In this document: positions 6,912-43,127 of the stretch, in pieces
Layout: every line of letters starts with the position of its first letter
Numbering within the stretch: position 1 is the stretch's first letter
Translations under genes and position numbers: made by a program
The notes under the pieces: model-generated
Database searches by the model: none
Seen by the model: the letters and a program-made list of their open reading frames with translations, nothing else
What the model was told of the DNA's origin: nothing
From: a virus
Virus record (IMG/VR): IMGVR_UViG_3300009156_000034
Coordinates: 1 to 55,457 of that record
Reading direction: 5' to 3' (one strand)
DNA length: 55,457 bases

Positions 6912-7707
6912 GAGGCGACCTGGCAGGCTTCTGCTCTGGGTCGCCTTCGTCTTGCTCCTCCTGGCGGTCCTCATTTTCAGCATGGCCATCGCCGCCCTGT
7001 TACCGAGCAAGATGGCGTACGCGCATCCGAGTGAACAGAGCGCCCCAGTCGCCACCACGGTGGCTGACCTGGCACCGCTACCACTGGCTGTGGCCGTGTC
7101 TACGGCGGCACGCCCCGGTGAGGGCGTCATCCGCATCACCACCAGAGTCTGTGGGAACGCCAACAACTGGCAGTCGGTGGCTGCCACCAACGGGATCAGA
7201 CCACCGGTCTACCTGGTGCTCCTGGGGCAGGTATTGTCCGTGCCATGTGTTGGGGGGTCTGCCCCTAGCGCACAGGTCCAGCCCTCGCCGCAGACCGGCA
7301 CTGGAGCAGTATCCGGGGGCTGGACCGCCCCGGTTCGGGCCTGCATCGTCAGTGGATACGGGATGCGCTGGGGCCGGATGCACTGGGGCGTGGATCTGTC
7401 AGCCGGCTACGGAGTACCCATCAGGGCCGCTGCGGCTGGCACAGTGTCAACGAGCTGGCAGAGCGGTGCCGGCAACTACACCACCATCAACCACGGTGGT
7501 GGGCTCTACACCGTGTACATGCACCAGTCCTCGTACGCCGTCAGGTCGGGCTGGGTGGGGGCAGGGCAGACCATTGGCTACGTCGGTGCCACCGGTAACG
7601 CCTCGGGTCCGCACCTGCACTTCGAGGTCCACACCGGGGGACTATGGAACGGCAAGGTGAACCCGGTTCCGTTCATGGCTAACCGAGGCGTCCGTCTCGG
7701 TTGCTGA
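6895..7707 (+). CDS. Membrane-anchored M23 (LytM-type) peptidase with a LysM-like segment
   Basis: N-terminal TM LLLWVAFVLLLLAVLIFSMAIAALL. LysM-like NNWQSVAATNGIRPPVYLVLLGQVLSVP. M23 motifs HWGVDL and GPHLHFEV. Confidence 0.8.
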   Translation: MNEETERRPGRLLLWVAFVLLLLAVLIFSMAIAALLPSKMAYAHPSEQSAPVATTVADLAPLPLAVAVSTAARPGEGVIRITTRVCGNANNWQSVAATNGIRPPVYLVLLGQVLSVPCVGGSAPSAQVQPSPQTGTGAVSGGWTAPVRACIVSGYGMRWGRMHWGVDLSAGYGVPIRAAAAGTVSTSWQSGAGNYTTINHGGGLYTVYMHQSSYAVRSGWVGAGQTIGYVGATGNASGPHLHFEVHTGGLWNGKVNPVPFMANRGVRLGC

Positions 7708-28378: not shown

Positions 28379-30115
28379 CTAGCAGGTCACAACCCGCTGG
28401 AGGCCAGTTGAACCACTCGGGCAGATACCGACCGTGTAGACCCTGGAGACCGGGCACATCTTCACCATGGCCCAACCCGTCTCTGTGAAGAGGTGGGTCA
28501 CCTGGTTGGTGGCCAGCTTCGTGGAGTCGTACACCGAGTTGAGCGTGATCACGTCGTTGACTGCCCGGATCCAAGTACCGGCCGGGTAGACCAGGAACTG
28601 GAGCGAGGTCGGCAGCGAGGTGATCGGGGTGTCCGAACCGGGCGAGCCGGACGCTGCACAGGTAGCGAAGGCGTCCTGCCAGTCGTACACGTACTGGACC
28701 CGGGCACCACGGCAGGAGAACGCTGACGTGATAGCCGCGTCCGCCAGGCAGAGGGCTTCTGGGCCACCGCCGACTGCGTTACGCCGGATCCAGTCCGCCC
28801 GCATCTGGGCACCGATCCAGAACGGCATAACCACTTCGAGCGTGGCGTTGCGCTGCATCCGGAGGCGGTACTTGATGTCCACAATGGCCATCTCCACCGC
28901 CGACAGGACCTGGCTGACCACCGAAGCGTCCGTGGCCCACGGTGCCAGTGCGGTCAGAGCCACCGCCGTGGAGCCGGTCACCACATCCGCGATCTGCTCC
29001 TTGTTGATCTGGTGCGCCGAAGCGGCCAGAGCACCACGGGTGAACGCGGCCGTGAACTCCGGGTATCCCCGCGTGGCCAGGATGTTGCCGGTGAGGCAGA
29101 GCCCGGTGACGCCGAGCCGGGTGTCCTCGAAGGACGGGCACGGAATCTCCAGACAGGTCTTCGTGGTGCCGGAAGCCACCTGGGCCTCAGTCAGGTCGAA
29201 GAAGCCAGTCGGGCTGTCGCAGGAACCGCCACCGAAGATCGAGTCGAACTCGATACCGGTGTTGTGCCGGATGCCGCCACGACGGGCCTGCACCTCGGGT
29301 GCGTCGAATAGACCGTCCGTGGTGATCTGGAGACAGATGTCGTAGTCCGTCTCGGACGGGGCACACCATCCTTGCGCCGCCACCAGGGCGTCACGCTCCG
29401 GGTGGTTGGCCTGGATCTCCTTGTACCGCTGCTCCACCGAACGGATCAGGGAGCCACCCGGGAGCCGGGTCTCGTCCATGACCTTGAGCAGCTTCGGGTA
29501 GTCCGTCTCGTCGCCCTGGAGGGAGAACTCGTCCGGGTAGTCGCGGACAAGCTGAGCCACCGGGTACATGATCGGACCCTCACCCCGGCCACCGCTCATG
29601 CGGCCGTGGCTGGATGAGCGGGACTCGAACGCCTTGGCAACTTCCAGGAGCGTGTCGAGCGGGGCACCGGCCTCGTAGTTGGGCACGCCGGCCGCTGCGA
29701 CCAGGGCCGAGTAGCGGGGGCGGTTGCTGACCGGGATGTTCGGCTCCGGTGCCGTGCCCACCAGGTCCACGATCTTCACCTTGGTGGCTGAGCCGTTGGC
29801 ACTGGTGGTTGCGGAGGCGACGATTGCCGGTTCCGGCTCTGGGTCCGGCTCAGGCTCCGGGTCACCCTCGGGCTCCGGGTCCGGCTCGGTGAGTGCGGAG
29901 AAGCGGTCCTTCTTGCTCTCCCGCTTGGCAAGTTCAGCCGGCACCTTGACTCGGGTGAACTCCTGGAGCTGCTCCAGGTGGTCAAGCACCTCATCGGGGC
30001 TATCCGCAGACGCCGACGCGATGAGGGAGTCAAACTCCGTCTTGGCCTGGTGCTTGAGGTCCTCTAGTCCAGCAACGCTGAACTGGTTCAGAGATTCAGG
30101 AATCTGGAAAGTCAT
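28379..30115 (-). CDS. Major capsid protein candidate with N-terminal scaffold-like domain (578 aa)
   Basis: N-terminal coiled coil followed by a PEPEGDPEPEPDPEPEP linker. Body segments include GWCAPSETDYDI, LFDAPEVQARRGGIRHN and a C-terminal block LQFLVYPAGTWIRAVNDVITLNSVYDSTKLATNQVTHLFTE, typical of capsid proteins. A 102-nt untranslated leader lies upstream. Confidence 0.6.
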   Translation of the reverse strand: MTFQIPESLNQFSVAGLEDLKHQAKTEFDSLIASASADSPDEVLDHLEQLQEFTRVKVPAELAKRESKKDRFSALTEPDPEPEGDPEPEPDPEPEPAIVASATTSANGSATKVKIVDLVGTAPEPNIPVSNRPRYSALVAAAGVPNYEAGAPLDTLLEVAKAFESRSSSHGRMSGGRGEGPIMYPVAQLVRDYPDEFSLQGDETDYPKLLKVMDETRLPGGSLIRSVEQRYKEIQANHPERDALVAAQGWCAPSETDYDICLQITTDGLFDAPEVQARRGGIRHNTGIEFDSIFGGGSCDSPTGFFDLTEAQVASGTTKTCLEIPCPSFEDTRLGVTGLCLTGNILATRGYPEFTAAFTRGALAASAHQINKEQIADVVTGSTAVALTALAPWATDASVVSQVLSAVEMAIVDIKYRLRMQRNATLEVVMPFWIGAQMRADWIRRNAVGGGPEALCLADAAITSAFSCRGARVQYVYDWQDAFATCAASGSPGSDTPITSLPTSLQFLVYPAGTWIRAVNDVITLNSVYDSTKLATNQVTHLFTETGWAMVKMCPVSRVYTVGICPSGSTGLQRVVTC

Positions 30116-30217: not shown

Positions 30218-30373
30218 TCACCTAGTTGGGGAAAAGGTACCCCCACCGGCCTTTGTTACCTCAACCCGGGCGTCGTGCTCACTGTCCACCGTCTTACGGG
30301 TGCCGTTGGGCAGGATCACCTCGTACTTCTGTCCGGGGGCGGCAGGTGTACTCCCGTTACAGGCGCATGGCAT
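30218..30373 (-). CDS. Small protein (51 aa), below the ORF-track cutoff
   Basis: Internal ATG of ORF 30218..30490, preceded by AAGGAGTAAATCA. Protein MPCACNGSTPAAPGQKYEVILPNGTRKTVDSEHDARVEVTKAGGGTFSPTR. Confidence 0.4.
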   Translation of the reverse strand: MPCACNGSTPAAPGQKYEVILPNGTRKTVDSEHDARVEVTKAGGGTFSPTR

Positions 30374-30377
30374 TGAT

Positions 30378-30656
30378 TTACTCCTTCTTCGACCTTCGGA
30401 CCCATTGTGTGATGTCGCGGATGAGATCAGCCTTTGAGGCGTCAGTATCTTCCGTTGGGTCATACGCCCTCCGGATCTCAAGAAGCTCAACCTTGGTCAG
30501 CTTCTTCCTACCTTCCTCGGCAGCCTCGTTCATTCGCCATGCTGTGGTTGGACTGAGGTCCCGGGGACCTGGCGGTGGTGGTGGCGCATCGAGGATCTGG
30601 GCCTCTTCGTCCACGAACCGTTTGGCGAAGTCACGGTACTCAAGCGGGAGGGTCAT
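30378..30656 (-). CDS. Hypothetical protein (92 aa)
   Basis: The ATG overlaps the stop of the upstream mini-gene (TGATG). Confidence 0.55.
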   Translation of the reverse strand: MTLPLEYRDFAKRFVDEEAQILDAPPPPPGPRDLSPTTAWRMNEAAEEGRKKLTKVELLEIRRAYDPTEDTDASKADLIRDITQWVRRSKKE

Positions 30657-30832
30657 CACTCAGCCTTAGCGGTTGCGTAGTGCAGCACGGCCTGAGCCCA
30701 GACAGGGAGGTCCTTGACCGTTTTAGCTTTTTCTCCCGCCTTGATGAGCTGGAGCAGGCCAGGATCGTCGGTCTCCAGGTCCAGGACTGCCTTGACCACG
30801 GCGATTGCTCGTGAAATGTCAGGTGTTATCAC
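30656..30832 (-). CDS. Small protein (58 aa), not in the ORF track
   Basis: Hand translation from a GTG that overlaps the polyvalent-protein stop (GTGA): VITPDISRAIAVVKAVLDLETDDPGLLQLIKAGEKAKTVKDLPVWAQAVLHYATAKAE. Confidence 0.45.
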   Translation of the reverse strand: MITPDISRAIAVVKAVLDLETDDPGLLQLIKAGEKAKTVKDLPVWAQAVLHYATAKAE

Positions 30833-33800
30833 CCTGCCTCCTGTACATAGGTTGCGGTGCGGTTGAGGATCACATAAATCTTGGAGGTTGCCGGTGCCCC
30901 AGTAAAGAGCCCCGGCTCATCCACCCTGATTGCATCGTAGCCGAGCAAGGCTGCCCGTCGCCCGTAGTCAGCCAGGACTCGGCTACGGCCACTGAGTCGA
31001 GCAGAAAGCTGGTCGTACTTCTCCATTACGGCAGTGATACCAACAATGTCGTTCGGGTCCAGTTTGTCTAGTTCAGCTTGCCGTGCAGCTTGTAGGTCCT
31101 TGGCTGCCTGGCTACCCCCACCGGCAGTCGTCATCTTCCGGAGTTCTTCCGACCCAATAATCCGGGCGTCACGTCGCAGTGCTATGCGAAGGACTCCTTC
31201 ATCATTGCCACTGGCGTAACCCAGGGCCGTTCTCCGGTCGGTAGCGGAGTAACTGCCGTTGCCATAGATGCCAAGGCCGGGGTAGTAGTCACCGGACCGG
31301 TAACGCTCAGCCAGCTCGGCTGCGGAGTAGTCTCCGTGACTGCTAATTCCACGGTGAACCTCGATGCCACCGTCACGAACGACCTCATCCATACGTTCCT
31401 TGGTGACAACTTCTGGTGGTCCGTTGTAGCCCTGCTCCTGGTAGATCCGGCCAAGCCAGATGTCACCAACACCTCTCGATCCCAGTGAATGGCCACTAGT
31501 GCTCTTAACTGTCGCGTCGTAGTCGAAATCATCAATGAGCTTCTGCCCACGGACGCCAGCAATGTCACGCTGGTTCGGCAGAACCTCCATGATGACGACC
31601 GGGATGTCGCCGGAGTCATCAACCCGGACCACCCGGAACTGTTGCCCTCGCGGCAGGAGTGCCTCCTGGACCCCTTCGTGACCCAGGGCGGCATGGGTAC
31701 CAGCCGGGGCCAGAATCTTGAACAGCATCGGCTTACGCCCCGAGGGGAAGTCACCACGACTCTTGCGCCAGCCGATGATCCGGCGAGCCCCCTGCTCATC
31801 AAAGGAGGTGGAGACGAAGCCTGCATCGGTGTAGATGGCCCCAGGAACCAGCCTGCGGTAGTCGGCATTAGCCGTGATGGCACTGCGCCACAGAACCGAG
31901 TCCCTGTCGATCACACTGTCAGCGATGGCCGAATCCAGGCCGATCTGAACCTCATCCAGGTCAACGGTTCCCGTTGGCGTGGTCCCGGTTCCGTGGAGGT
32001 TGCGACCCTTGCGCAGTGACCCGTTCAGTTGGTCTGCCACCGCCGCCATCATGTACAGGTCGAGGGCCTTGTTCTCCTTGTCGGTCAAGCCAGGACGGCG
32101 TTGTCCTTCCTGGATCAGTTCGGCAATTGGCCTGCCGCGCTTGTGGGTCAGCTCAGTGGGGATGGACTCGCCACGGTGTTTTAGTGCGTGCTTCACGTAG
32201 CGGGCCTGGAACCGCTGCTCCTCGATCGGGACCGGGTCACCGAGGACGGTGCCGCCGAGGGTCTTGAATCTGGGCTTCGGTGGGACCTTGGCCTTCTCCA
32301 GGGCATCGGCAAGCCGCTCCACCGCCGTGGCCGCATCGTCGGCCTTGGCGATGTAGGAATCCATCTCTGCTTTACGGGCAGGATTCTGGGCCATTGGGTG
32401 CCTGCCCTTTATGGCATCCTTCTTAACCTCCCGCCAGCGTGCCGCCGTCTCCCGCATACGTTTGACCAGCTTGGCCCGGGGGTGACGTGGATCGAAGCCT
32501 TGCTCAGCCTCCTCTTCCCAGTAATGGAAGGCGTTATGGAACGGGTTCTCATCTTCGTACCTACGCCGCATCTCGCCAGGGTTGGCGGTTCCTCCATAAA
32601 GGGCGGTGCCGGCGTGCCAGGTGGGGGCACCCTCTTCGGGGCTCCATCGGTCCCAGTCAACTCCACTAGTCTCACCAGCCAGCTTGCGTAGGTCCACGTT
32701 CCCCTGGTCGTTGATGTACTCAGGCTTACCCTTCCTCTTCTTCCCCAGGTCGTCAGCCAGGTGACGAAGCGTCTCAGCATCCTCTTTGGACTCAGTCTTC
32801 AGGGCATCCAGGCGCAGACGCCTGGCTACTACCTTGGTGTCATCACCGTTGGCAATGCTCTGAGCTGCCCGGTGAAGCGGGGTCCAGTCCAGAGCCGGTG
32901 CCCGACGACCCATGTCACTGAGTCGCCCGAATAGGTCCTGGAGAGCGTCCTGCGGGTCCTTATCAGGCTCCAGGGCATCGGCAATGTCGTGGTCCATCAG
33001 ATCCGGCAGCACCTTCTTCAGGTCTGCCTGAATCTCGTCGTTGGCAATGAGTTCCTCAACCTCAGCCCGGGTCAGCCACTTGGCATCCACTGTGTCCTTG
33101 TGGCTGGGCTTGACATCGAACATCCGTGGTGAGTCAGCCACCAGGGACGTGTACGTCCAGCCGTGCGGGTCTGGAAGAGTTTTATGCTGGCCAGCCGGAG
33201 ACAACCGCTCTAGGTCGGCCTCGCTGACACCGATCTCCTCCTGCATCTCCCGGGCCGTGCCCTGGTACACCGTCTCCAAACTGTTTCGGGCACCGCCCGG
33301 CAGTTGCCACTTACCTTTGGCATCAGCCTTTTCCGAGGTTTTGACGAGCAGGTACCGGGGCTCTTGGTCATCACCACGAGCCCGGACCAGGGCACCGGAG
33401 GCTCCGTAGTATCCCCATGGTGCGTCAGGGCCAAGCCGACCGTCACCACTGGATCCTCGTTCACCTGGGGGGAGCACGGTGAACTGGTCGTTGGGGTCCG
33501 GCCTCGTGATGCGAGCCTCAGGTACCCGCTTAGGTGCCGCCTTAGCTGGTGCCACCTTCTTTGCCGGGACCCGCTTGGCTGGCCCCTCACCACGAAGGGC
33601 TGCCTTGATCTTGTCCTTGGTCCAGGACGCCCCAACCGGGACACCCCTCTTGCCGGCCTCAGCTACCAGCTCCTTCTGGGTCATCTGATCCAGGTCAGTG
33701 GCGTCACGGGCTGGCTTAGCTGGGGCCGCTTTCTTTGCCGGTGCAGCCTTCTTGACAGGTACTGGTGCAGCGCCAGGAAGCGGGCGAGGTGACTGATCCG

Positions 33801-36800
33801 CAACCGAGATGAGGTGGTTATCTTCACCGGCCAGCTTTACGGCTCTGGCCCGATCCTCGGCTGTCAGTGTCTTCTGGTTGGCCTGTGGTGCGATGTTGGC
33901 GGTACGTGCCCGACTCATGCGGACTATTGCCGCGTCGATTTCGGCATCCGTCATCGACTTCGGCATCCGGCCCTTTACTTCGGTGATACGGACGAAGTCA
34001 CTGGAGGGCTTGCCAATGTCACGAAGGGCAGCACGGACGGCGTTCTCGACCTCAATCTCCCGGACTTCATCAGAGGTGGGTGCTGGTGCAGCCTCCGGTG
34101 CCTTCTTCTCGTCCTTACCGAAGTAGTCACGCAGGAACACACGGGCATCGGCCTGGGCACGGATGGACTGCCCCAGTTCCTTGCGCTGCCGCAGTAGACT
34201 CAGACGCTCATCCGGGGTTAGGTCTCCCTTGAGTGTCCGATCCATGTCGATCATCTCGGAGGAGTTGAGGTCAATCTCTGTCTCTAGGCGGCGGATCCCT
34301 TCATCGGGGGTGATCTTCCCGGAGGAGATGTCGAACCGGATCTCTTGCAAGGAGGCGTTAGCGGAACCTTGCGGTGCCTCGAAACCCTTCTCCTCCCAGG
34401 CTTCATCGAAGCCCTTCTTCTGGTCGGAGGGCAGAGCCCGGGATCCGACAGGTGTGCCGGTCTTCTCCAGGATGGCGTCGATCCGGTCCTGCTTGTTGAG
34501 GCTGGACCGCTTGATCCCAAGGTCATCCTCAATGTCCCTAAGTTCGCCAAGCTCCATGGCTTCGAGGCGTTCACGGGTGAGGGTTGGTCCAGCCTCCTTG
34601 CCCGGTGCTACCTCCTGATCAGGGAAGACGGCCTCAACGTCAACGTACCGGGCACTCTTCCTCTCCCCCGGGAAATCTGGGTGACTGAACCGGCTGACAC
34701 CATGGTCACGAACAACCCGGAACTTGGCACCACGGGGGAACAGCATCTCCCCCTCTTCACCCTCCACGGGTGACATGCCGACCATGCCGGTTCCCTTGCG
34801 GACCACCATCCTGATCACAACCGGTTGGGCATCCGCGTTGTCGATGGCGAACCGGACAGCAACATCCTTGTTGGCTGAGGCACTGGTGAAGCCAGGATCG
34901 TCCCAGGTGCGCCCCTCCAGGCTTTCATCCCTACTCAGGTCACCGAAGATGCGCCGGCCATCGACCCCTCGCCAAGCCTCCACATCAGACTTCAGCTTGG
35001 CGTCAGGGTTCTGGAACGCCTCATCCATGAGCCGTACTTGCTCACGGATCTGCTCCGTGCTTTCACCACGAGCCACATCAGCAAGACGGCGCTCGTTGAG
35101 GGCACCAGGGCTGGCCCGGTAGGCGTCAAAGGCGTCCTGCGTCTTCTTACCCAGCTTCTCGGTGAGTTGGTTTTCAGGCTCATCCTCGAACTCGTACGCC
35201 CTCAAGTCGGAGGAGTTGGCTGCGGCCTCACCCTTGGCGGCGGATTTGATCTGACGGTCGAACTTTGCCTGTTCCTCGGCGGTCGGCTTCTGGCCCTGAG
35301 TAGCCCTGCGGGCTGGCACCGCCTTCTTCGCCGGGGCACGGAACCCTTCATCACTGGGCGTCGGACGGGTGGTCCCACCACCAAAGGCACGAAGGCTCAT
35401 GACAATGTGAGTCTTGCGTGCCTTGAGGTCCATTGAGGACGGGAAGGTGATTCCCAGCTCACGACCTAGCTGGTTCACATCCTCCATGTGATTGACGTCA
35501 GCAATGATGCGGTTCATCTCATCTGCATTGGTGCTGTTGTCGCTGAGCCGGCCAGCAATCCGCTGAAGAGGATGATCGTCTGGCAAGCCTGAGCCCCTAG
35601 CAATCTTTCGCCGCTCGGGTGTCAGTTGAGACATGAAGGACTTCGGGGCAGCCTTACGTGGAGCGGCAGCCTTCTTTGCCGGAGCCCGCTTCACAGGTGC
35701 CGGCGTCTCACCCCGCATGTGAGCCTTGATCCGGTCCTTGGTCCAGGACTTGGAAGCACCCTCAGCGCGAGGATCGGCAAGCAGCTCATCCTTCGTCATC
35801 TGGTCAATGTCGGTGACATCACGGACAGGCTTAGCGGGTGCAGCCTTCTTGGCAGCCGGAGCCCGCTTGACCGGTGTCAGTGGTGCCAGTTCGTCAATCT
35901 TTTCCTGTGTCAGTCCCAGAGACTTCAGTCGGGAACGCTTCTGGCGAGTGGTGAGGGAGTCATCTGAGACGATGTGGTCGGCTCGGTCCTCCGGTGTCAA
36001 CGGGGTGCGGTCGACCTTCGGTGCAGCCTTCTTAACTGCTGTCCGTACCTTGGCTGCTTCAGTCTCGGAGAACGGCTTCTCCTCCGGTGGGTTGACGTAC
36101 TTGTCAGTGGCCTTTTCACTCTGTGATTCCAGGAGGGCGGCCCGTAGCTTCTCGTACCGGTCAGCCGCAGCCTGGGCTTCGTCCCGTTCACGGCGGAACC
36201 CACGAGCCCGGTCACCGGAGGCATTCTCAGCCTTCTGGTGAGCAATCCCGGCCTCGCTGCGGAACCGCTTCGCCTCTTCCCGGGCAGCATGACGGGCCTG
36301 GGGCACGGACATCTGCCCACCTCGGACACCGGTAGCTATCTGCCGGTAGACCTTCCCGTCTTCCCCTTCGATCTTCTCCTTGTCCAGCACCTCCAGGGCC
36401 GTCCGGTACCGGGCCTGGGTGACGGTCATGTGCCGGCGACCGGTCTGAATCTCCTTGGCCCGCTGGAGTTGGGCAGCCTTCTCCAGCAACGGCTTCTCGG
36501 ACGGCTCACCGGGCCGTACCCGCTGAGCCCGCTTGACGATGTCCTCTTCCGCCACCGACTGGCCGGACGGTGTTGGCTTCGGCCGCTCCGGTTCCCGGAC
36601 CCCACGCTTGAGGCCGTGCTGCTCAGCGATCAGGTCAGCGAGTTGGTCCTGAACCTTGATGTCCTGCTCAAACTCCCGGTCCTTGTCGCTGGTGCCGTCG
36701 AGCTTGTCCTGGACCAGTTGCCGCTTGTTGACGGCGATGTCGACTTCCAGCTCACGAAGCGCATCCTCGGGACGCCGCTTCCCACTGGTGATGCCCTCAT

Positions 36801-37935
36801 ACGCCTTGTTGAACTGCCGGCGACGTGGGCCATCAGAGGGTGCCCCGATCCCTGCCTCATCGAAGGCAGCCCGGAAGTCAACGGTGCGGATCGGTTCCTC
36901 GGGTGCGGGCTCTGGTGATGGTGCTCTACCTGGAGCCCCACCACCTACCGATTCGGAGTGGATCGGCTCATTCCGTGGAGGGGGGCCACCGGGACCGGTA
37001 TCAGTGGGTCCGGTGATCTCCGCTTCGGTAGCACCTAGCCCACGCATCCGCTGTTGGTGTTCCGCAATGGACTGCCGCTCCCGTTCGGCCCTGGCCTCAG
37101 GGGTGTTGGCCTCCTGTCGCGCTGCCTCCCGGCCGAGTCCTTCCCGTTCTCCCAGGGCACGCTGAGTCGGGGCCAATGGTGGTGCCCCAGTGGCTCGGGC
37201 TTCCCGCATCTCTGGTGTGGCACCGGTTTCCCGTTCGCCACCACGCAGCGGGTGTGGCTCCTCGCCTCCACCTTCGGTGTCAACGATGGCGGTGATGTGG
37301 TACCCGCCTCGTCCATCACGGTCCACTTTGGTGATCCGGATGGGCAGGTCCCGGTCCATCATCACGCCACGGTCGTTGGGACCGTTACGGGTGGGGGCGA
37401 TCTTTGTGCCCTTGGGGGCGACGATGGCCATGTGGATGGGGCCACCGGAGCCAGGACTACCGATCCGGGTGGGGGTGTATCCCTTGCTGGACACCACCTT
37501 TCCAGGCAGGTCCCAGACGCCACCGTCTTCAGCGTCCATGAACGCCGGGTCGATGCCGAACGCTTCCGGACCCATGCTTCGGTGCAGGATCAGGTCATCA
37601 TGGGACGGCTGAAGCTGAGCATCCATCATGTCCACGAAGCGCTGCGTGGATGCGTCCATCCGTCCGGCCTGTAGCTGGACATTGGTGTCGTGCAGGTCGG
37701 CCAGCAGCCGACGCTTATCTGCTTCTGGCCAATCTTTGTAGCTGCTGAACAGGTACTGTGACGCCTGCTGGTCCGAGCCGAACTCGCGGTAATCAATCCG
37801 GGCAAGCATGTCGAGGATGCGCTTGGCCAAAGTGATGGCCATGCCCACGCCAGCCTTATTGATGAACCGCCCGTTCTTGCCCCGGGGGTGCATGAGTTCT
37901 TCTTCTGCACCCCAGGAACTGCCCAGCTTCGCCAC
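30829..37935 (-). CDS. Polyvalent protein (2368 aa): several ADP-ribosyltransferase-like modules, a Nudix hydrolase module and duplicated DNA-binding modules
   Basis: Single uninterrupted ORF between the protease/scaffold gene and the capsid genes. Motifs are listed in the sub-features below. Confidence 0.85.
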   Translation of the reverse strand: MAKLGSSWGAEEELMHPRGKNGRFINKAGVGMAITLAKRILDMLARIDYREFGSDQQASQYLFSSYKDWPEADKRRLLADLHDTNVQLQAGRMDASTQRFVDMMDAQLQPSHDDLILHRSMGPEAFGIDPAFMDAEDGGVWDLPGKVVSSKGYTPTRIGSPGSGGPIHMAIVAPKGTKIAPTRNGPNDRGVMMDRDLPIRITKVDRDGRGGYHITAIVDTEGGGEEPHPLRGGERETGATPEMREARATGAPPLAPTQRALGEREGLGREAARQEANTPEARAERERQSIAEHQQRMRGLGATEAEITGPTDTGPGGPPPRNEPIHSESVGGGAPGRAPSPEPAPEEPIRTVDFRAAFDEAGIGAPSDGPRRRQFNKAYEGITSGKRRPEDALRELEVDIAVNKRQLVQDKLDGTSDKDREFEQDIKVQDQLADLIAEQHGLKRGVREPERPKPTPSGQSVAEEDIVKRAQRVRPGEPSEKPLLEKAAQLQRAKEIQTGRRHMTVTQARYRTALEVLDKEKIEGEDGKVYRQIATGVRGGQMSVPQARHAAREEAKRFRSEAGIAHQKAENASGDRARGFRRERDEAQAAADRYEKLRAALLESQSEKATDKYVNPPEEKPFSETEAAKVRTAVKKAAPKVDRTPLTPEDRADHIVSDDSLTTRQKRSRLKSLGLTQEKIDELAPLTPVKRAPAAKKAAPAKPVRDVTDIDQMTKDELLADPRAEGASKSWTKDRIKAHMRGETPAPVKRAPAKKAAAPRKAAPKSFMSQLTPERRKIARGSGLPDDHPLQRIAGRLSDNSTNADEMNRIIADVNHMEDVNQLGRELGITFPSSMDLKARKTHIVMSLRAFGGGTTRPTPSDEGFRAPAKKAVPARRATQGQKPTAEEQAKFDRQIKSAAKGEAAANSSDLRAYEFEDEPENQLTEKLGKKTQDAFDAYRASPGALNERRLADVARGESTEQIREQVRLMDEAFQNPDAKLKSDVEAWRGVDGRRIFGDLSRDESLEGRTWDDPGFTSASANKDVAVRFAIDNADAQPVVIRMVVRKGTGMVGMSPVEGEEGEMLFPRGAKFRVVRDHGVSRFSHPDFPGERKSARYVDVEAVFPDQEVAPGKEAGPTLTRERLEAMELGELRDIEDDLGIKRSSLNKQDRIDAILEKTGTPVGSRALPSDQKKGFDEAWEEKGFEAPQGSANASLQEIRFDISSGKITPDEGIRRLETEIDLNSSEMIDMDRTLKGDLTPDERLSLLRQRKELGQSIRAQADARVFLRDYFGKDEKKAPEAAPAPTSDEVREIEVENAVRAALRDIGKPSSDFVRITEVKGRMPKSMTDAEIDAAIVRMSRARTANIAPQANQKTLTAEDRARAVKLAGEDNHLISVADQSPRPLPGAAPVPVKKAAPAKKAAPAKPARDATDLDQMTQKELVAEAGKRGVPVGASWTKDKIKAALRGEGPAKRVPAKKVAPAKAAPKRVPEARITRPDPNDQFTVLPPGERGSSGDGRLGPDAPWGYYGASGALVRARGDDQEPRYLLVKTSEKADAKGKWQLPGGARNSLETVYQGTAREMQEEIGVSEADLERLSPAGQHKTLPDPHGWTYTSLVADSPRMFDVKPSHKDTVDAKWLTRAEVEELIANDEIQADLKKVLPDLMDHDIADALEPDKDPQDALQDLFGRLSDMGRRAPALDWTPLHRAAQSIANGDDTKVVARRLRLDALKTESKEDAETLRHLADDLGKKRKGKPEYINDQGNVDLRKLAGETSGVDWDRWSPEEGAPTWHAGTALYGGTANPGEMRRRYEDENPFHNAFHYWEEEAEQGFDPRHPRAKLVKRMRETAARWREVKKDAIKGRHPMAQNPARKAEMDSYIAKADDAATAVERLADALEKAKVPPKPRFKTLGGTVLGDPVPIEEQRFQARYVKHALKHRGESIPTELTHKRGRPIAELIQEGQRRPGLTDKENKALDLYMMAAVADQLNGSLRKGRNLHGTGTTPTGTVDLDEVQIGLDSAIADSVIDRDSVLWRSAITANADYRRLVPGAIYTDAGFVSTSFDEQGARRIIGWRKSRGDFPSGRKPMLFKILAPAGTHAALGHEGVQEALLPRGQQFRVVRVDDSGDIPVVIMEVLPNQRDIAGVRGQKLIDDFDYDATVKSTSGHSLGSRGVGDIWLGRIYQEQGYNGPPEVVTKERMDEVVRDGGIEVHRGISSHGDYSAAELAERYRSGDYYPGLGIYGNGSYSATDRRTALGYASGNDEGVLRIALRRDARIIGSEELRKMTTAGGGSQAAKDLQAARQAELDKLDPNDIVGITAVMEKYDQLSARLSGRSRVLADYGRRAALLGYDAIRVDEPGLFTGAPATSKIYVILNRTATYVQEAG
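30832..31480 (-). other. Polyvalent protein module 5: C-terminal domain with a PARP-like H-Y pattern
   Basis: EVHRGIS ... GLGIYGNGSYSATD ... GVLRIAL recalls the H-Y-[EDQ] class of ARTs. This is only a weak pattern match. Confidence 0.3.
31585..32075 (-). other. Polyvalent protein module 4: R-S-E type ADP-ribosyltransferase domain
   Basis: VLWRSAI (Arg), DAGFVSTSFDE (STS) and HEGVQEALLPRGQQFRVV (QxE/ExE followed by LLPRG..F.V). Confidence 0.65.
33226..33294 (-). other. Polyvalent protein module 3: complete Nudix box
   Basis: GARNSLETVYQGTAREMQEEIGV fits GX5EX7REUXEEXGU exactly. The surrounding ~120 aa (PRYLLVKTSE..KWQLPGG...DAKWLTRAEV) look like a Nudix fold. Confidence 0.75.
33515..33775 (-). 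repeat. Polyvalent protein internal repeat B: basic tract plus HeH/SAP-like motif
   Basis: PVKKAAPAKKAAPAKPARDATDLDQMTQKELVAEAGKRGVPVGASWTKDKIKAALRG. Confidence 0.6.
34690..35150 (-). other. Polyvalent protein module 2: R-S-E type ADP-ribosyltransferase domain
   Basis: EAWRGVDGRRIFG (Arg), DPGFTSASANKDVA (S-x-S) and EGEEGEMLFPRGAKFRVV (ExE followed by the L(F/L)PRG..F.V block typical of exoenzyme-type ARTs). Confidence 0.6.
35640..35885 (-). repeat. Polyvalent protein internal repeat A: AKKAAPAK-type basic tract plus HeH/SAP-like motif
   Basis: PVKRAPAAKKAAPAKPVRDVTDIDQMTKDELLADPRAEGASKSWTKDRIKAHMRG is paralogous to the copy at 33515-33775. Confidence 0.6.
37290..37650 (-). other. Polyvalent protein module 1: degenerate R-S-E type ART-like domain
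   Basis: LILHRSMG (Arg block) and KGYTPTRIG (in place of STS). The expected ExE block reads NDRGVMMDRDLPIRI, so the catalytic Glu is not evident. Confidence 0.35.
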
Positions 37936-37946
37936 AGATCACCTCG

Positions 37947-40484
37947 CTACTGAACCGGAACCGGAGTCGGTGGAGCCTGCGCCTGCTGCTGTGCGATCTC
38001 AGGTGGGAGCGGCGGGTCGTTCTCCGGGGACCCTTCCTCAACGATCTGGTACGGGGCAGACGGGTCAGCCTCAGCCGCCGTGAGCCAGGCATCCCAGTCG
38101 GTCGATGCTTCGCCGGCGGCGACCGCTGTCGATGCCTTGGCTGCCAGTTCCGGGTCCATGGCGTAGAGGTGCTCCAGCCGCTTGCGTCGCTCCCGTTGGG
38201 CGTAGATTTCCTCGTCCTCCTGAAGGTCGGCCAGGCGCTGAGCCCGCTCCTGACGAGCCTCCTCTTCGTCCATCTGCTCCCGGACCATGGAGGCGAGTAG
38301 GGCAACATTGATTCCAGTCGGTGGTCCTGTGTATTCCTCCGGTTCCGGGACCACCGACCCAGCCGCTACCAGAGACATTTGCTCCTCGTTCTCCATCGAG
38401 TAGACCGGGAACGCGGGGGCGTTCACGGCAAGAGCGGCGGTCAGCTCCAACGAGCCCTGCTCCCGTCGCCAGTCGCCGGACAGTGGAGATCGGCGCAGCT
38501 TCGCCACCTTCTTCGGGGTGGCCTCCGGGACCACGGAGCCGGCCACCCAGATGCCGTACTCGTCCTCGCCGGCCCGGACAATGGCGATCTCGTCTCCGGT
38601 GTTGTCGTAGTGCAGGGCGGCGGCGGCGTAACTGAGCCGGATGTCGGCGTGCCGGGTGTCCATCACGATCTTGCCCACCCGCAGCGTGTCACCTTCAGCG
38701 GTGAGCACGGTGCCGAGATGGTAGGGGGCGTACCCGAGCCTGGACTTCGGGGCCAGCACACACTCCCGCATAGTCACGTCTCGATGGCACTCACCCCAGG
38801 CAGCCAGGTGCCCGTACAGTCGCCCGTCACCCTCCACGGTGATGGGCGTCTTGCCTTCCAGTTGTGGATCCTCGAACCAGGCGGCAGGTGGGGTGAGCGG
38901 GTACCCTTCCTCGCTCATGGCGTAGGTGTGAGAAGGGTTCATCTTCATGGCCGCACCTTCAGCGATCTCGATGCCGGCCTTCTTAGCGGCAGCCTTGATC
39001 CGTCCTTTGATCTGCTCAAGCTGCTCGTCGGTGTACTCGGCCGCGTTCTTCGGAACGTTGATGTACGCCCACGCGGCCCTGATGTGCTCCGGGGTGTCGA
39101 TGGGGTACCTCTTCTTGTTGTCGCGGTAGCCCGGGTCGGCATAGTTCACGTCGCCATAGGGCTCCTTAGTCTCGGTTGCCATAGCTGCCTGGATCCCTTC
39201 CTGAGCTGACCGGTCCCATGGCGCTCGTATTGAGGCGTCATTGAACTCTTCGGCCATTATCGGGTAAATCTCACTGATCACGTTTCGGAGATCAGCCTTG
39301 TCTGCATCGGGGATGTCGGGTAGTCCACCATGGGCACCGGACAGCAGAGCCGCCGCCGCATAAATGGCGTGGTAGATCAGCGTCAGTCGGCCGTTGATGA
39401 TGTCACCGAACGGGAGCCGGTACGAGGTGGTGGCAGTTTCCGGGAGCCGAGGGTCGTGCCACATGAAGGCCCGCTTCAGCTTCGCCGTATCAGCACCTTC
39501 CGCTGATACCTGAGCCCACGCAGCGATTCGCTTAACCGCATCATCGTTGTCAAATACCGCGTCACGGGGGGCAAGGGGAAGACCTTTCCAGCCAGAGGGG
39601 TTGACGGACGCCACCAGAGCCCCGCACCCACAGTCCTCTTCCTCCGGCCCTTCCAAGTCCATGACCATGTCGTAGTCGTCATCCGGCCACTCTCCATCCT
39701 GGTTGAGGGAGTAGATGCGCATAGCACTGAACGCTGGGATGGAGACCAAGGTGGCCCCACCGATGGTGAACTCCAGGACGTGGTCGATCCCGGTGAGTGG
39801 GTCAGCGGTGCCGGCCACCGGGCCACCCGGGTCAATGCTGGTGCCGACCACCCCCTGCTCCATCAGGTACCGGGCCTTCTTCGCGTCCGGGATGGTGTCC
39901 TCATCGAGGAAGTCACCCCAGCCGTAGGCAAAGTCCAGGCCCGCCTCGTTGGGGCCGTAGGTGATGCCCAGGATCCGGCCAACGGTGACAGCGCCCTCGT
40001 GCCCCGGTGCCGTACGCTCCCGCCAGTCCAGGGGCAGCGGCAGTACCCGGTGCCGGAGGGCTCCGTGCTCAAACACCCGCTTCCGCCGTGGCTCCTCAGT
40101 GAGTCGCCCGATGGATGCCAGGGGTCCGGCCCATAGGTGCTTGCCCAGCATTGGCATGGCAGCCAGCAACGCTTCCGCGTCACTGAGTTCCTGACGGGTA
40201 TGGACGAATCCCTGCTGCCCCTGCTTCCCGTTGTTGGCACGAGCAGCCATGGCAGCCGTGATGGCAGCCTCGCCAGGGTGACCTTTCCCGGGAGGAGCGC
40301 CTAGGGCCTTCTGGTGCAGGATGTTGCACAGGCCCTCGGGGTTGGTGGGGAAATACTTCCGGAGCTGACGCACGCACCGGTTGAAGTCGTGGGGCAGACC
40401 CCAGCGGATCTTCAGGGCACCCTTGCCGGCGAGCCAGTACCTCTGTAGCTGGAGCGGCATCCCTCGTGCCGGGTTCGGATCCAT
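37947..40484 (-). CDS. Capsid maturation protease / scaffold fusion (845 aa)
   Basis: The ATG overlaps the MuF stop (TGATG) after AAGGGGG. The N-terminus QRYWLAGKGALKIRWGLPHDFNRCV is typical of actinophage proteases. Two protease-like regions follow (..GVVGTSIDPGG.. and ..GRLYGHLAAWGECHRD..DTRHAD..), then an acidic coiled-coil C-terminus. Confidence 0.65.
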   Translation of the reverse strand: MDPNPARGMPLQLQRYWLAGKGALKIRWGLPHDFNRCVRQLRKYFPTNPEGLCNILHQKALGAPPGKGHPGEAAITAAMAARANNGKQGQQGFVHTRQELSDAEALLAAMPMLGKHLWAGPLASIGRLTEEPRRKRVFEHGALRHRVLPLPLDWRERTAPGHEGAVTVGRILGITYGPNEAGLDFAYGWGDFLDEDTIPDAKKARYLMEQGVVGTSIDPGGPVAGTADPLTGIDHVLEFTIGGATLVSIPAFSAMRIYSLNQDGEWPDDDYDMVMDLEGPEEEDCGCGALVASVNPSGWKGLPLAPRDAVFDNDDAVKRIAAWAQVSAEGADTAKLKRAFMWHDPRLPETATTSYRLPFGDIINGRLTLIYHAIYAAAALLSGAHGGLPDIPDADKADLRNVISEIYPIMAEEFNDASIRAPWDRSAQEGIQAAMATETKEPYGDVNYADPGYRDNKKRYPIDTPEHIRAAWAYINVPKNAAEYTDEQLEQIKGRIKAAAKKAGIEIAEGAAMKMNPSHTYAMSEEGYPLTPPAAWFEDPQLEGKTPITVEGDGRLYGHLAAWGECHRDVTMRECVLAPKSRLGYAPYHLGTVLTAEGDTLRVGKIVMDTRHADIRLSYAAAALHYDNTGDEIAIVRAGEDEYGIWVAGSVVPEATPKKVAKLRRSPLSGDWRREQGSLELTAALAVNAPAFPVYSMENEEQMSLVAAGSVVPEPEEYTGPPTGINVALLASMVREQMDEEEARQERAQRLADLQEDEEIYAQRERRKRLEHLYAMDPELAAKASTAVAAGEASTDWDAWLTAAEADPSAPYQIVEEGSPENDPPLPPEIAQQQAQAPPTPVPVQ

Positions 40485-41269
40485 CACCGCCCCCTTTCGT
40501 TGAGGATCACCAGGTCGCATCGGCAGTTGATGACCGCCTCAGGTGGTCCCATTGGATCACCCGGAAACATAAGTGGGAACCCTTCGACGTAGAACGGGTA
40601 TCCGAGGTCCCGGACCTGGCCGTCTACTTCTCGGTGGGAGATTCGGACTCGTTCGTCTCGTTCGGTGTCCCAACGTTTGCGGAGCAGTCGCCCGGTGACC
40701 CGGGACTGTTCCATACCCGCTGCCAAGGTGCCGGCTCCGTAGGCTCGGGTGGTCTCGGTCTGGGCAATGGTTCTTGCCCTAGCCGGCCAGTTCTCTGAGC
40801 CGGTGTAGCTGAGCACGGAATCGACTCGTTGAGCAATCTGCTCCACTGATTCACCACTGTTCGTGCCATCCGTAATGGCGGCGAACACCAGGTTGTATGT
40901 CTCATCAGGCATCCGTACCAGGAAGTTCTGGGTCTGGGCTAGCTGACTTACTACGAAGGCGTGGCGGCTTACGGGGGGCACGTCGGTCGCCTGACTCCAG
41001 GCGCTCAGGCTGATCTTGCCAATCTCGGTCAGGATCGTATCGACTTCGCCGTCCCAGTCGCCCTGGGTGCCGTAGATGGCCGTAGGGTCCGGCATCATCC
41101 GGTACTGCCGCCATGGCTTCATCACCGCCTCTCGGGCACTGGCCAGCCACCGCTGCAACGCACCGGCTACCACTCCTGTCAGCCTGTTCTCATCCTCTTC
41201 ACGGCTGGCCACGGAGGAAGCCTCTACGCTGAAGGACAGTGCCGAGGGTGGAGGAGCGATGCGGGACAC
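40484..41269 (-). CDS. MuF/SPP1 gp7-like head morphogenesis protein
   Basis: RWDTERDERVRISHREVDGQ...FPGDPMGPPEAVINCRCDL is the MuF C-terminal signature. The start is uncertain: GTG at 41269, or GTG at 41209 after AGAGG. Confidence 0.75.
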   Translation of the reverse strand: MSRIAPPPSALSFSVEASSVASREEDENRLTGVVAGALQRWLASAREAVMKPWRQYRMMPDPTAIYGTQGDWDGEVDTILTEIGKISLSAWSQATDVPPVSRHAFVVSQLAQTQNFLVRMPDETYNLVFAAITDGTNSGESVEQIAQRVDSVLSYTGSENWPARARTIAQTETTRAYGAGTLAAGMEQSRVTGRLLRKRWDTERDERVRISHREVDGQVRDLGYPFYVEGFPLMFPGDPMGPPEAVINCRCDLVILNERGR

Positions 41270-43127
41270 GTTGTTCGATCAAGGCAAAGCAGTATTCCTG
41301 GAGCGTCGACTCAAGGGCTACCGTGTCAAGGCTTGGGTCAAGGTGTTCGGCCAGAACTGTGAGATGATCCCAGGCTCCGGCAAGCAGCTTCTGGCGATCA
41401 GCTTTGTCGGACGTGATTCGCGTATGGAGATCATGAGGCGGTACCCCGGGCCAATTGCCGCGCTGGTGGCGGTCAAGAAGACGCTTACCTACAAGCTCCA
41501 TGGCCCGCACAACCGCCGCGTTTGCCACCACGAACACATTGGCGTTGGTCACCGCATAGGCATCTGGATCCCCAGTCAAGGACGCAGTGACCGCCTGCGG
41601 TCCTGGCGGTGGACCACCGGGAGCGTTCTGGGCCTCTGTTTCCAATGGGAGCGGCGGGCCGGCGGTTGGTGAGATGCCGGTCGGTGGTGCCGGTGGTGGG
41701 GGCGGTCCAGCACCAGGCATTCCTTGCTGCGGCGTGACCACGGTTTCGGCCGGCAGGATGTCCTCGGTGTAGCCAGCCACTTTGCGTACGGCTGGGATCT
41801 GGAACAGGTTCGGGTCCCGCAGCATCAGCTCCCGGGTGAACCGCTCCAAGTCCTCCTCGTCGCTGGGAGCATCGCTGATGGCGTAGTCGCCGGAGATGAG
41901 CACCGTTTCCCGGCTGACCAGACCCTTGTCGTACATCTCCCGGGTGTCCTTGAGCCGCTCCGGCCGCACAGTCAACGGGGCAGTGTCGTACCAGAACACG
42001 TACCGGTCCGGGTCTTCTTTGAGGGCCTTCAATGCCGGCTGAAGATAGCTGGAGGTCAATCCGTCGCAGATCCGGTTCATCAAAGGAACAATGTGGACGT
42101 TGATCTGGCCTTCCATGATCTGCCAGGCACCCCAGTGATTCGCTTCCCCGGCACCAGTGAGGATGGACGGGTCAATGTCCATGGCGAGGGCGAACCGGCG
42201 TAGGGCTTCAGCTCTCAGATCCAGCGCCTGCTTCGACAACTCGCTGGTGAACTGGATCAGGTCGATCTTCCCCAGCGCCTCTATCGGGATCTCGGCGAAG
42301 GTGGGCACCACACCTGCTGCCGTACCTTCACCCTTGAGTGAAGCCGAGCCTGTCTTCATCAGCCTGGATGTGAGGGCATCCCCACCGGTTAGCGGGTTGC
42401 CTTCCTGGTCCACCTCGTCCGGGAAGGACACTTCCTTCGGGATGAACATGAGGCCGGCAGAGACAAGCCGGGAGTCGATCTGGGCGAACACGAACCGGGT
42501 CAGCCGCTCGATCTCCCACAGCATCGGCATCGCCGCCCGGGTGGGGGAGTCAGCCCACAATCCACGCCGAGGGTGTGGGGTCCACACCCGGATAATCATG
42601 TCCCGCTCAGGGTTCAGATCCTCGGGCTCGCCGTCGTAGCTGGTCATGGTGACCCGGCCGGTGCGGGAGTACCGCTTCAGTTCGGAGCAGGACAGCACGA
42701 ACCATTCGTCTGAGGTGGGGTCATCGGTGCTGCGGCCGATGATGTAGGCGTCGCCCGCCACGGTCAGGTTGATGCCGAGCATTCGGATGGCTTCGGCCTT
42801 ACTGACCGGACCTCCGAACAGGGTGTCCGCCAGCCCGGCTATCTTGGCTTTCTTTACCTCTTGCTGGACCCGGCCGTTCTTGTCCACTTCGGCAACGTAG
42901 ATACGCACGCGGGAGCAGGCGGAACCGATCCAGTTGGCTACGAACCTTAGTTCGCCAATGATGTCGTACAGTCGCCATGCTTCCTGCTGCCATGTGTCGT
43001 CACCGAACTTGTAGCTCCTCCATCCCTGCCCGTCCAGCTTGATTCGGGCAGCAGACGCGACAAGACTTTTCGGTGCCTCATGGGCGGTGGGAACGGCTGA
43101 CGTAGCCCTCCGGCTGCCCAGGCGCAT
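41199..43127 (-). CDS. Portal protein (642 aa)
   Basis: Size, position between terminase and MuF, and the N-terminal block WQQEAWRLYDIIGELRFVANWIGSACSRVRIYV typical of actinophage portals. Confidence 0.8.
   Translation of the reverse strand: MRLGSRRATSAVPTAHEAPKSLVASAARIKLDGQGWRSYKFGDDTWQQEAWRLYDIIGELRFVANWIGSACSRVRIYVAEVDKNGRVQQEVKKAKIAGLADTLFGGPVSKAEAIRMLGINLTVAGDAYIIGRSTDDPTSDEWFVLSCSELKRYSRTGRVTMTSYDGEPEDLNPERDMIIRVWTPHPRRGLWADSPTRAAMPMLWEIERLTRFVFAQIDSRLVSAGLMFIPKEVSFPDEVDQEGNPLTGGDALTSRLMKTGSASLKGEGTAAGVVPTFAEIPIEALGKIDLIQFTSELSKQALDLRAEALRRFALAMDIDPSILTGAGEANHWGAWQIMEGQINVHIVPLMNRICDGLTSSYLQPALKALKEDPDRYVFWYDTAPLTVRPERLKDTREMYDKGLVSRETVLISGDYAISDAPSDEEDLERFTRELMLRDPNLFQIPAVRKVAGYTEDILPAETVVTPQQGMPGAGPPPPPAPPTGISPTAGPPLPLETEAQNAPGGPPPGPQAVTASLTGDPDAYAVTNANVFVVANAAVVRAMELVGKRLLDRHQRGNWPGVPPHDLHTRITSDKADRQKLLAGAWDHLTVLAEHLDPSLDTVALESTLQEYCFALIEQRVPHRSSTLGTVLQRRGFLRGQP

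Follow-up and report, generated by a model that had tools for sequence, protein, structure and literature searches.

What is the function of a very large multidomain protein that is encoded within the head-assembly module of a tailed phage, between the genes for the protease/scaffold protein and the major head protein? This question is raised by a locus in the IMG/VR virus record IMGVR_UViG_3300009156_000034, of which the stretch from position 1 to position 55,457 (hereafter, the window) was analyzed. The open reading frame (ORF) 30829..37935, on the minus strand, starts with GTG and encodes a protein of 2368 amino acids and 260 kDa (hereafter, the giant protein). This ORF is the longest in the window, the runner-up encoding 1079 amino acids, and covers 7107 of the 55,457 nucleotides (12.8%), so that both the coordinates and the share of about 13% given in the initial annotation, which was made from the letters of this DNA, are reproduced. 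It is a real gene with a coupled start, located 11 nucleotides past the stop of the preceding 857-codon gene and 5 nucleotides downstream of the Shine-Dalgarno sequence GAGGTG.

The giant protein is, in our assessment, probably a polyvalent effector that is carried inside the head of the phage and injected, along with the DNA, into the host. Three circumstantial lines of evidence lead to this reading: the position of the gene is kept in relatives, the protein joins a constant N-terminus to variable cargo, and the N-terminus contains a short peptide that is common to effectors encoded in head modules or fused to portal proteins. Polyvalent proteins combine at least two effector domains in a single phage polypeptide; here, we found two domains of the family PF03496, a Nudix domain, an ADP-ribosyltransferase (ART) fold that is predicted to be catalytically dead, a putative ART-PolyVal-like domain, and three HeH modules.

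The giant gene lies downstream of the terminase, portal and MuF genes, and the order portal, separate MuF-like gene, 857-amino-acid DUF6582/protease-like gene, giant ORF, small ORFs, capsid gene, recovered with Pfam and PHROGs, bears out the head-module placement next to a stand-alone MuF gene that had been noticed from the sequence. The same order of portal, MuF, DUF6582 protein (830-880 amino acids, directly preceding the giant gene), giant protein, one or more small genes including one for a DUF7196 protein, and capsid is found in two independent long contigs (L003 and L004). Among 5.8 billion proteins, 23 relatives of the entire ORF were detected, all metagenomic, 1373-2541 amino acids long and, for the most part, represented by one sequence on one contig; a comparison of the whole ORF with 50,697 deposited phage genomes by megablast and tblastn returned no match. 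The N-terminal domain is common to 21 of the 23 relatives, in most of which the similarity extends to approximately residue 480, and the module at residues 1172-1304 is common to 20, but none of the relatives covers the two active-looking ART domains (ART1 and ART2) or residues 1650-2160. When the 24 family proteins are considered together, Pfam recognizes an ART domain in 5, a Nudix domain in 2 and HeH/SAP-type domains in about 10 (Rho_N in 10, SAP in 5), and the bulk of the sequence belongs to no Pfam family. The architecture is thus one of a constant N-terminus with variable cargo enzymes.

The constant region begins with the domain that defines the family. Compared with the PDB, a profile of 17 family members matches VIP2 (E=4.5e-11) and also a Listeria ART effector and iota Ia (6e-5). 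The AlphaFold model of this domain has a mean predicted local distance difference test score (pLDDT) of 86.9 and a predicted template modelling score of 0.84, and the matches of the model in a Foldseek search are C3, iota, CDTa and VIP2 (probability 1.0; template modelling (TM) scores of 0.6-0.7). Taken alone, the domain scores 14.3 bits against PF03496, which is below the threshold. The degenerate N-terminal ART proposed in the initial annotation is therefore borne out at the level of the fold. In the alignment to VIP2 and ART1, the column of the catalytic Glu is variable (G, A, Q, E, S, R), with G190 in the giant protein, an invariant D188 stands opposite the first acid of the ExE motif, and the column of the catalytic Arg is unconserved. 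Because neither catalytic column is maintained, the domain very probably is an ART fold that has lost the transferase activity. A second candidate identity, that of a MuF domain, was rejected given that hhalign against the MuF protein of the window yields E=0.31; PF04233 (MuF) has no Pfam match in the giant ORF, MuF being a separate gene.

At residues 8-24, the giant protein contains the peptide ExxHPRxxxGRF (hereafter, the tag), in which H16, P17, R18, G22 and R23 are nearly invariant across the family. A single copy is present in 20 of the 21 relatives that share the N-terminal domain, at about residue 16 in 17 of these and nearer to a shorter called N-terminus in three; the one relative without the tag is an N-terminally truncated call. 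No second copy was found elsewhere in the window, so the giant protein is apparently not cut into modules at tag sites. When W-x-E-x-x-H-P-R-x3-G-[K/R]-F was scanned for as a degenerate DNA pattern, at least 120 IMG/VR stretches (L011-L130) were identified, versus 2 for a control pattern in which the same components were scrambled; in bacterial genomes from many phyla, along with one archaeon (loci L133 onward), the scan identified at least 120 stretches. The consensus is (A)(E/D)W(D/E/N)E(S)xHPR(D/G)x(D/G)G(K/R)F, behind which the sequence is rich in Gly/Ser, and the 102 instances compared are biased also at positions that the pattern left unconstrained (Ala at -7, Asp/Glu at -6, Asp at +3 and +5, Gly/Ser enrichment from +9 to +15).

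The tag occurs either near the N-terminus of the respective ORFs or internally, in up to six copies per protein, and in the inspected proteins, the internal tags follow the portal domain and adjoin effector modules. Portal domains were detected in 15 of 71 tag-bearing ORFs (alignment A7). The other domains in this set include Nudix (6 ORFs), ADPrib_exo_Tox (4), Zeta toxin (3), PBECR1 (3), ART-PolyVal, LPD3, RelA_SpoT and Topoisom_I (2 each), Acb1 (1), as well as InPase, LPD13, MuF, SNF2/methylase and AAA_33 kinase; domains of the PBECR1/2 group also occur in tag-bearing proteins. The topoisomerase I is of the eukaryotic type, and Acb1 is an anti-CBASS nuclease. The presence of Acb1, Zeta-toxin, AAA_33, topoisomerase I and RelA/SpoT domains in tag-bearing ORFs suggests that the cargo delivered by phage heads can include enzymes already known to counter defences.

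In two contigs that were reached via homologues of the C-terminal domain, the tag recurs in arrays of genes. One locus (L006:35-6145) encompasses five consecutive paralogous genes, each of which starts with M..W[D/Q]ESEHPR...GRF and ends with the C-terminal domain discussed below, whereas the central regions are dissimilar (DUF3626-like, GNAT-like); the gene immediately after the array is MuF-like (35-7152). This array looks like an unfused counterpart of the giant protein. In another locus (L008:3306-10847), five consecutive genes between the portal and protease/capsid genes contain W.E..HPR...GKF close to the N-terminus, one of them encoding an ART and one a kinase-like protein, and the portal protein itself has the tag at residue 530. 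Recurrence of the tag was also observed at L045:964-5016. Among the stand-alone proteins with the C-terminal domain, 14 of 34 start with the tag.

In cultured phages, a tblastn search with the 24-amino-acid tag peptide gave one hit with E=2, such a search being too insensitive for a peptide of this size. The tag is absent from the C-terminal extensions of the portal fusions of Pseudomonas phage R12 (Pbunavirus) and Escherichia phage WFH (Wifcevirus), and from YungMoney gp14 and UNTPL gp8 and gp9. We found no description of the tag in the literature on polyvalent proteins, polymorphic toxins and MuF toxins (Aravind/Jamet; no 'HPR') or by text search, which is absence of evidence only. We tentatively propose, as a possibility that we hold with less than even confidence, that (W)xExxHPRxxxG[K/R]F is a general, apparently undescribed signal for capsid loading or for processing/release in tailed phages of many bacterial phyla; if so, the giant protein may be an extreme case in which one tag carries many effectors.

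The cargo itself includes several domains with recognizable catalytic motifs. PF03496 (ADPrib_exo_Tox) matches the whole protein with 66.2 bits, compared with the cut-off of 23.4, in two stretches. ART1 (residues ~916-1085) contains the complete R-S-ExE set, namely, R989, T1017-S-A-S1020 and E1061-G-E1063; the ExE signature is associated with arginine-specific ARTs. In ART2 (residues ~1956-2112), R2017, S2042-T-S2044 and the catalytic E2091 are present. Accordingly, the two R-S-E domains named in the initial annotation are recovered with the motifs quoted there, and both stretches are significant, although the loop of ART2 is non-canonical. ART1, with its complete set, and likely ART2 are probably transferases that use nicotinamide adenine dinucleotide (NAD+). 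Single-sequence phmmer searches of ART1 and ART2 against the PDB yielded nothing usable. The broader claim of several ART modules holds with respect to the folds, but at most two or three are potentially active because ART2 has no canonical [Q/E]-x-E and the N-terminal ART has no catalytic Glu.

The Nudix domain scores 44.1 bits against PF00293 (cut-off 21.1), and its Nudix box at residues 1548-1570, GARNSLETVYQGTAREMQEEIGV, fits Gx5Ex7REUxEExGU exactly (G1548...R1562-E1563..E1566-E1567..G1569), so the description of it as a textbook box was apt. The nearest solved structures are RenU (6uuf, 1.7e-9) and Arabidopsis NUDT7 (AtNUDT7, 5.5e-7), a kinship that is a mere hint of the substrate class. 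PADLOC recognized no defence-related Nudix family, the hit to PDC-S07 amounting to only 23 bits.

The C-terminal domain is one of a large family, which comprises 3210 representative clusters when the threshold is E<=1e-3 and 2118 when it is E<=1e-10; for the copies in the members examined, Pfam has no domain on record and none was found. Its homologues are either stand-alone proteins of 190-340 amino acids or are present in one to five copies in large proteins (P0024-P0199), usually at the extreme C-terminus, where the partners include ADPrib_exo_Tox, GNAT, Zeta toxin, AAA_33, MuF and Nudix. Five residues are invariant (R2195, Y2229, D2334, N2358 and R2359), and the giant protein has all family positions (R2195, G2227/Y2229, G2332-Y-D2334-A and L2357-N-R2359). 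A single-sequence phmmer search against the PDB gave nothing usable; by fold, PARP catalytic domains and ParT dominate the PDB matches, all weak (E 0.1-1, TM ~0.36). The profile of the domain touches the diphtheria-toxin-like C domain (E=0.019), the BFVD matches are uncharacterised Caudovirales proteins (E 1e-12 to 1e-7) and ART-PolyVal-like proteins (~1e-4), and PF18760 (ART-PolyVal) shows sub-threshold similarity to the copies in two family members. We read this as a divergent domain of the ART superfamily, distantly ART-PolyVal- or PARP-like. Membership in PF18760 by sequence is not claimed, given that hhalign against two ART-PolyVal copies aligned only the GYDGI stretch (E=0.085). The PARP-like H-Y pattern suggested for this region in the initial annotation is only partly right and imprecise as a label: PARPs provide the top, if weak, PDB folds, but the histidine is not conserved in the family, unlike Y2229 and the other four invariant residues.

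Besides the enzymatic domains, the giant protein contains three HeH/SAP-like modules and four Ala/Lys/Pro-rich basic tracts. The first and third modules are near-duplicates, with an alignment score of 229 compared with 44 +/- 8 for shuffled sequences, in line with the duplicated basic/HeH modules previously proposed. A helical module, denoted X, is also present in two copies that are paralogous (score 89, shuffle mean 35 +/- 7, z ~8); the profile of module X retrieved only coiled-coil noise from the PDB. A phmmer search of the PDB with residues 1650-1960 found nothing usable. The stretches without a domain assignment are residues ~460-690, 770-900 and 1650-1950. The coordinates of all these features are collected in Table 1.

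Table 1. Features of the giant gene, its product and the adjacent head genes in the window, in order of position.
Feature	Residues	Coordinates	Strand	Basis or comment
Major head protein gene		28379..30115	-	phrog_777, E=2e-124
Whole giant gene	1-2368	30829..37935	-	ORF, Shine-Dalgarno sequence, 23 large homologues
C-terminal domain, putative divergent ART	2156-2368	30832..31470	-	AlphaFold pLDDT 92.5; family without Pfam match
ART2, VIP2/C3-type	~1956-2112	31600..32070	-	PF03496 33.9 bits alone; alignment to ART1
Region between Nudix and ART2	~1650-1950	32086..32988	-	No Pfam, PDB or homologue coverage
Nudix hydrolase domain	1521-1643	33007..33375	-	PF00293
HeH/SAP-like module 3, basic tracts	1389-1472	33520..33771	-	phrog_38661, E=2e-8 over 1402-1448
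Helical module X, copy 2, SHOCT-like core GKITPDEGIRRLE	1172-1304	34024..34422	-	Weak Pfam SHOCT-like match
HeH/Rho_N-like module 2	1124-1158	34462..34566	-	Rho_N E=8e-4, below cut-off; phrog_20349
ART1, VIP2/C3-type	~916-1085	34681..35190	-	PF03496 best stretch 916-1075; phrog_3895 ART toxin
HeH/SAP-like module 1, Ala/Lys/Pro-rich basic flanks	688-765	35641..35874	-	Near-duplicate of module 3
Helical module X, copy 1	~340-450	36586..36918	-	Kept in nearly all relatives
N-terminal C3/VIP2-like ART fold, family-defining, predicted catalytically dead	1-232	37240..37935	-	Profile and AlphaFold
N-terminal tag, WGAEEELMHPRGKNGRF, ExxHPRxxxGRF	8-24	37864..37914	-	Family alignment
857-amino-acid protease/scaffold fusion gene		37947..40520	-	Pfam DUF6582, 2e-22; phrog_18402, 4e-49 over 549-783
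Separate MuF-like gene		40484..41269	-	Pfam Phage_Mu_F, 52.3 bits; PHROG head morphogenesis
Portal gene		41199..43127	-	phrog_776, E=1e-148

Under the scenario that we favour, the giant protein would be expressed late, from an operon that also contains the genes for the portal, MuF, protease/scaffold and capsid proteins, and would be recruited to the procapsid via its conserved N-terminal part, that is, the ExxHPRxxxGRF peptide and the dead C3/VIP2-like ART fold. This fold might act as an adaptor, comparable to the inactive N-terminal ART through which the enzymes of binary toxins dock onto their translocation partner; the parallel is drawn because the best structural matches of the N-terminal domain are VIP2, iota and CDTa, and is an analogy rather than a claim of membership. 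The three HeH/SAP-like modules, together with the histone-H1-like Ala/Lys/Pro tracts, could retain the protein on the packaged DNA, with which it would leave the capsid at infection. In the host, ART1 and probably ART2 would modify host macromolecules using NAD+, the Nudix domain would hydrolyze a nucleoside diphosphate linked to another moiety (NDP-X), the candidates being NAD(H), ADP-ribose, a signal that stems from ADP-ribose, and an NAD-type RNA cap, and the C-terminal ART-PolyVal-like domain might contribute a further activity. A hypothetical aim of such chemistry would be to counteract Thoeris, CBASS or ADP-ribose signalling.

Several observations weigh against this scenario, in which packaging, DNA binding, ejection, every enzymatic activity and every target are what we infer. 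A protein of 260 kDa must unfold to traverse a siphophage tail, and no metallopeptidase or other processing domain of the polyvalent type was identified by Pfam. As to the putative enzymes, the loop of ART2 is V-Q-E instead of [Q/E]-x-E, so that the set is only partly present; the Glu that precedes the VILNR strand in some members of the C-terminal domain family is missing in the giant protein; and in NCBIfam, every Nudix equivalog falls far below its cut-off, such that no subtype or substrate class is assigned. With regard to the tag, the Trp of the giant family is at W-8, three residues upstream of the canonical W-5, and the link to the canonical tag rests on 8 fixed positions rather than on an identical pattern. 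Furthermore, where the tag follows a portal domain, a docking signal seems needless, and a processing, linker or release element may fit at least equally well.

Other explanations of the locus account for part of the same evidence. The giant protein could be a late effector that stays in the cytoplasm, is never packaged, and is expressed with the head genes because the slot tolerates insertions; it would then act in the infected cell, in late host shut-off, superinfection exclusion or removal of an NAD-derived defence signal. In more distantly related cultured phages, the slot between the protease and capsid genes is indeed occupied by unrelated small genes, namely, reverse-strand genes in Actinoplanes phage phiAsp2 and, in the Gordonia phages Clown and YungMoney, a gene for an RNA ligase. 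Nevertheless, we consider a protein that is never packaged unlikely, given that the exact position is kept in both L003 and L004 and that approximately 480 N-terminal residues are conserved across 21 divergent relatives, that the tag is common to portal-fused cargo, and that the gene has a coupled start and is part of one operon on a single strand; it would also be hard to explain why a soluble late enzyme should have DNA-binding modules and a dead adaptor domain. If, alternatively, the giant protein were mainly a structural component of the head interior, which condenses the DNA, belongs to an inner core or forms an ejection conduit, the domains that resemble enzymes would be vestigial or would serve as binding modules only. 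The three HeH/SAP modules, four basic tracts and two coiled-coil-like modules, the catalytic death of the family-defining ART fold, and the lack of a recognizable enzyme domain in most relatives are all compatible with this explanation, and phi24B gp47 has been proposed to be an ejection-conduit protein. However, no catalytic residue is missing from ART1 and the Nudix box is without a flaw, the cargo varies among close relatives as expected of effectors involved in conflict, and a tape measure gene is present, so that an additional conduit is not obviously needed; a mainly structural role thus appears quite improbable.

We deem it very improbable that the giant protein is an inter-bacterial polymorphic toxin of the MuF type, released or delivered by particles and killing competitors of the lysogen, the way in which MuF-fused ART toxins of head modules have been interpreted (PMC5576092, PMC3482391). 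As noted above, the polypeptide contains no MuF domain, and the N-terminal domain does not align convincingly with MuF; there is no evident immunity-like gene nearby, the downstream ORFs being small conserved head-module genes; and no integrase or repressor was identified among the larger ORFs, the only ones screened. The packaged and injected polyvalent effector, in contrast, is consistent with the maintained gene order, the division into a constant N-terminus and variable cargo, and the tag.

As a whole, the window has the make-up of a complete siphophage-type genome with a G+C content of ~61%, encoding, besides the head genes named above, a terminase (44738-46210), major tail protein, tape measure protein, endolysin, primase/polymerase and methyltransferase; no tRNA was found in it. 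The head protein is 46% identical to the capsid protein of Actinoplanes phage phiAsp2 and more distantly related to those in 872 records of Mycobacterium, Gordonia and Microbacterium phages, so the host is probably an actinobacterium. The 857-amino-acid protein consists of an N-terminal phrog_6439 region, DUF6582, a region similar to head maturation proteases (phrog_18402) and an acidic coiled-coil tail, and has no match in NCBIfam. Three small ORFs (30218-30832, minus strand) separate the giant gene from the capsid gene; the first starts at a GTGA that overlaps the stop of the giant gene, and the last encodes a DUF7196 protein that begins with a Cys-rich segment (MPCACNG). These same small genes recur behind the giant gene in L003. 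The tape-measure-like gene (21675-23669, minus strand) encodes only 664 amino acids and is followed by the 1079-codon ORF (18434-21673, minus strand), part of which is phosphodiesterase-like (phrog_24476, E=5e-12); such a layout is unusual in a tail module. An ORF of 388 codons on the plus strand (3256-4422) matches a PHROG transposase family (E=3e-69), which suggests an insertion-sequence-like element within the phage genome.

Head-packaged effectors are the phage proteins that meet the host first, and hence it depends on them whether defences, NAD-dependent or otherwise, are pre-empted. The giant protein would bring to this encounter an unusually dense NAD/ADP-ribose toolkit, with up to three potentially active ART-type domains and a Nudix domain in one polypeptide, and it belongs to a rare family in which a catalytically dead ART fold is kept constant while the enzymes are swapped. 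The parts likeliest to be of wider use are the tag and the family of the C-terminal domain, with its more than 3000 clusters and no Pfam model. The tag connects the giant-protein family with a very broad range of effectors that are fused to portal proteins or encoded in head modules; should it be a loading or processing signal, injected effectors would become findable by sequence alone, and the tag would provide a handle for cataloguing those of phages, including ARTs, Nudix proteins, Zeta-toxin kinases, RelA/SpoT proteins and Acb1.

The general principle of head-packaged polyvalent effectors is already known. ARTs, Nudix domains and polyvalent proteins of phage heads have been predicted to be packaged (PMC5512222, PMC9503650), and mass spectrometry of phi24B virions has revealed a polyvalent protein of 2811 amino acids (bioRxiv 10.64898/2026.04.10.717836). 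Similarly to the polyvalent proteins described by Iyer, Burroughs, Anand, de Souza and Aravind in 2017 (PMC5512222), the giant protein is a very large multi-effector polypeptide encoded among virion genes of a phage with a portal and terminase; these proteins are predicted to be packaged and injected, and ART is their commonest modifying enzyme (PMC5512222). The tag provides another connection, being present also in proteins with LPD13, LPD3, PBECR1/2 and ART-PolyVal domains. Unlike the polyvalent proteins, the giant protein contains no MPTase, LPD, PBECR or methylase-helicase domains detectable by Pfam, and what defines its family is a dead ART fold together with an N-terminal peptide of which we found no description in PMC5512222. 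Pfam likewise recognizes no ART-PolyVal domain in the giant protein, the C-terminal domain of which resembles ART-PolyVal in the BFVD and sub-threshold comparisons only.

Closer to the actinobacterial setting, the MuF-ART fusions of Microbacterium phage Percival (gp4) and Gordonia phage YungMoney (gp14) likewise place a VIP2-like ART in the head module of a siphophage, and some actinophages with an ART in the head module share the capsid type of the phage described here. In Streptomyces phage UNTPL, gene 9 (L256:1917-5480), located directly after a MuF-like gene, encodes an Ala/Lys-rich basic protein of 1188 amino acids that ends in an R-S-E ART (GYGSTS ... EQEILLPRG); this protein, which has no annotation other than hypothetical, is an analogue of the giant protein on a smaller scale. 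In contrast to the MuF-ART and UNTPL proteins, the giant protein is 2-3.5 times larger, is accompanied by a separate MuF, and contains two ARTs, a Nudix domain, the dead ART and the putative C-terminal ART-like domain.

Phage T4 Alt resembles the giant protein in being an R-S-E ART that is late, head-carried and injected and has an N-terminal targeting element (PMC5512222, PMC9503650). It differs as a single-enzyme protein of ~75 kDa from a myovirus. The targeting sequence of Alt, together with its cleavage by the T4 prohead protease, is not known to be related in sequence to the HPR tag. The binary toxins VIP2, iota Ia and CDTa share with the giant protein the dead N-terminal ART fold followed by active-looking ARTs, but in the giant protein, the ART domains are more than 700 residues apart with other modules in between, and there is no pore-forming B component, so that delivery would use the portal and tail instead. 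With regard to size, the counterparts are P1 DarB, N4 vRNAP and phi24B gp47, which also exceed 2000 amino acids, are internal to the capsid and are delivered at infection; the presence of gp47 in virions was shown by proteomics, and DarB and N4 vRNAP have been discussed in PMC5512222. These proteins carry different domains, namely, methylase-helicase, RNA polymerase and LPD/metallopeptidase, and belong to other phage lineages. Relative to all these systems, the gain is the specific architecture and the tag: what is new is a rare family built on a dead-ART constant region, PF03496-type ARTs inside a polyvalent-style protein, and the combination of ART, ART, Nudix and a putative ART-like domain under one N-terminal tag, next to a separate MuF gene.

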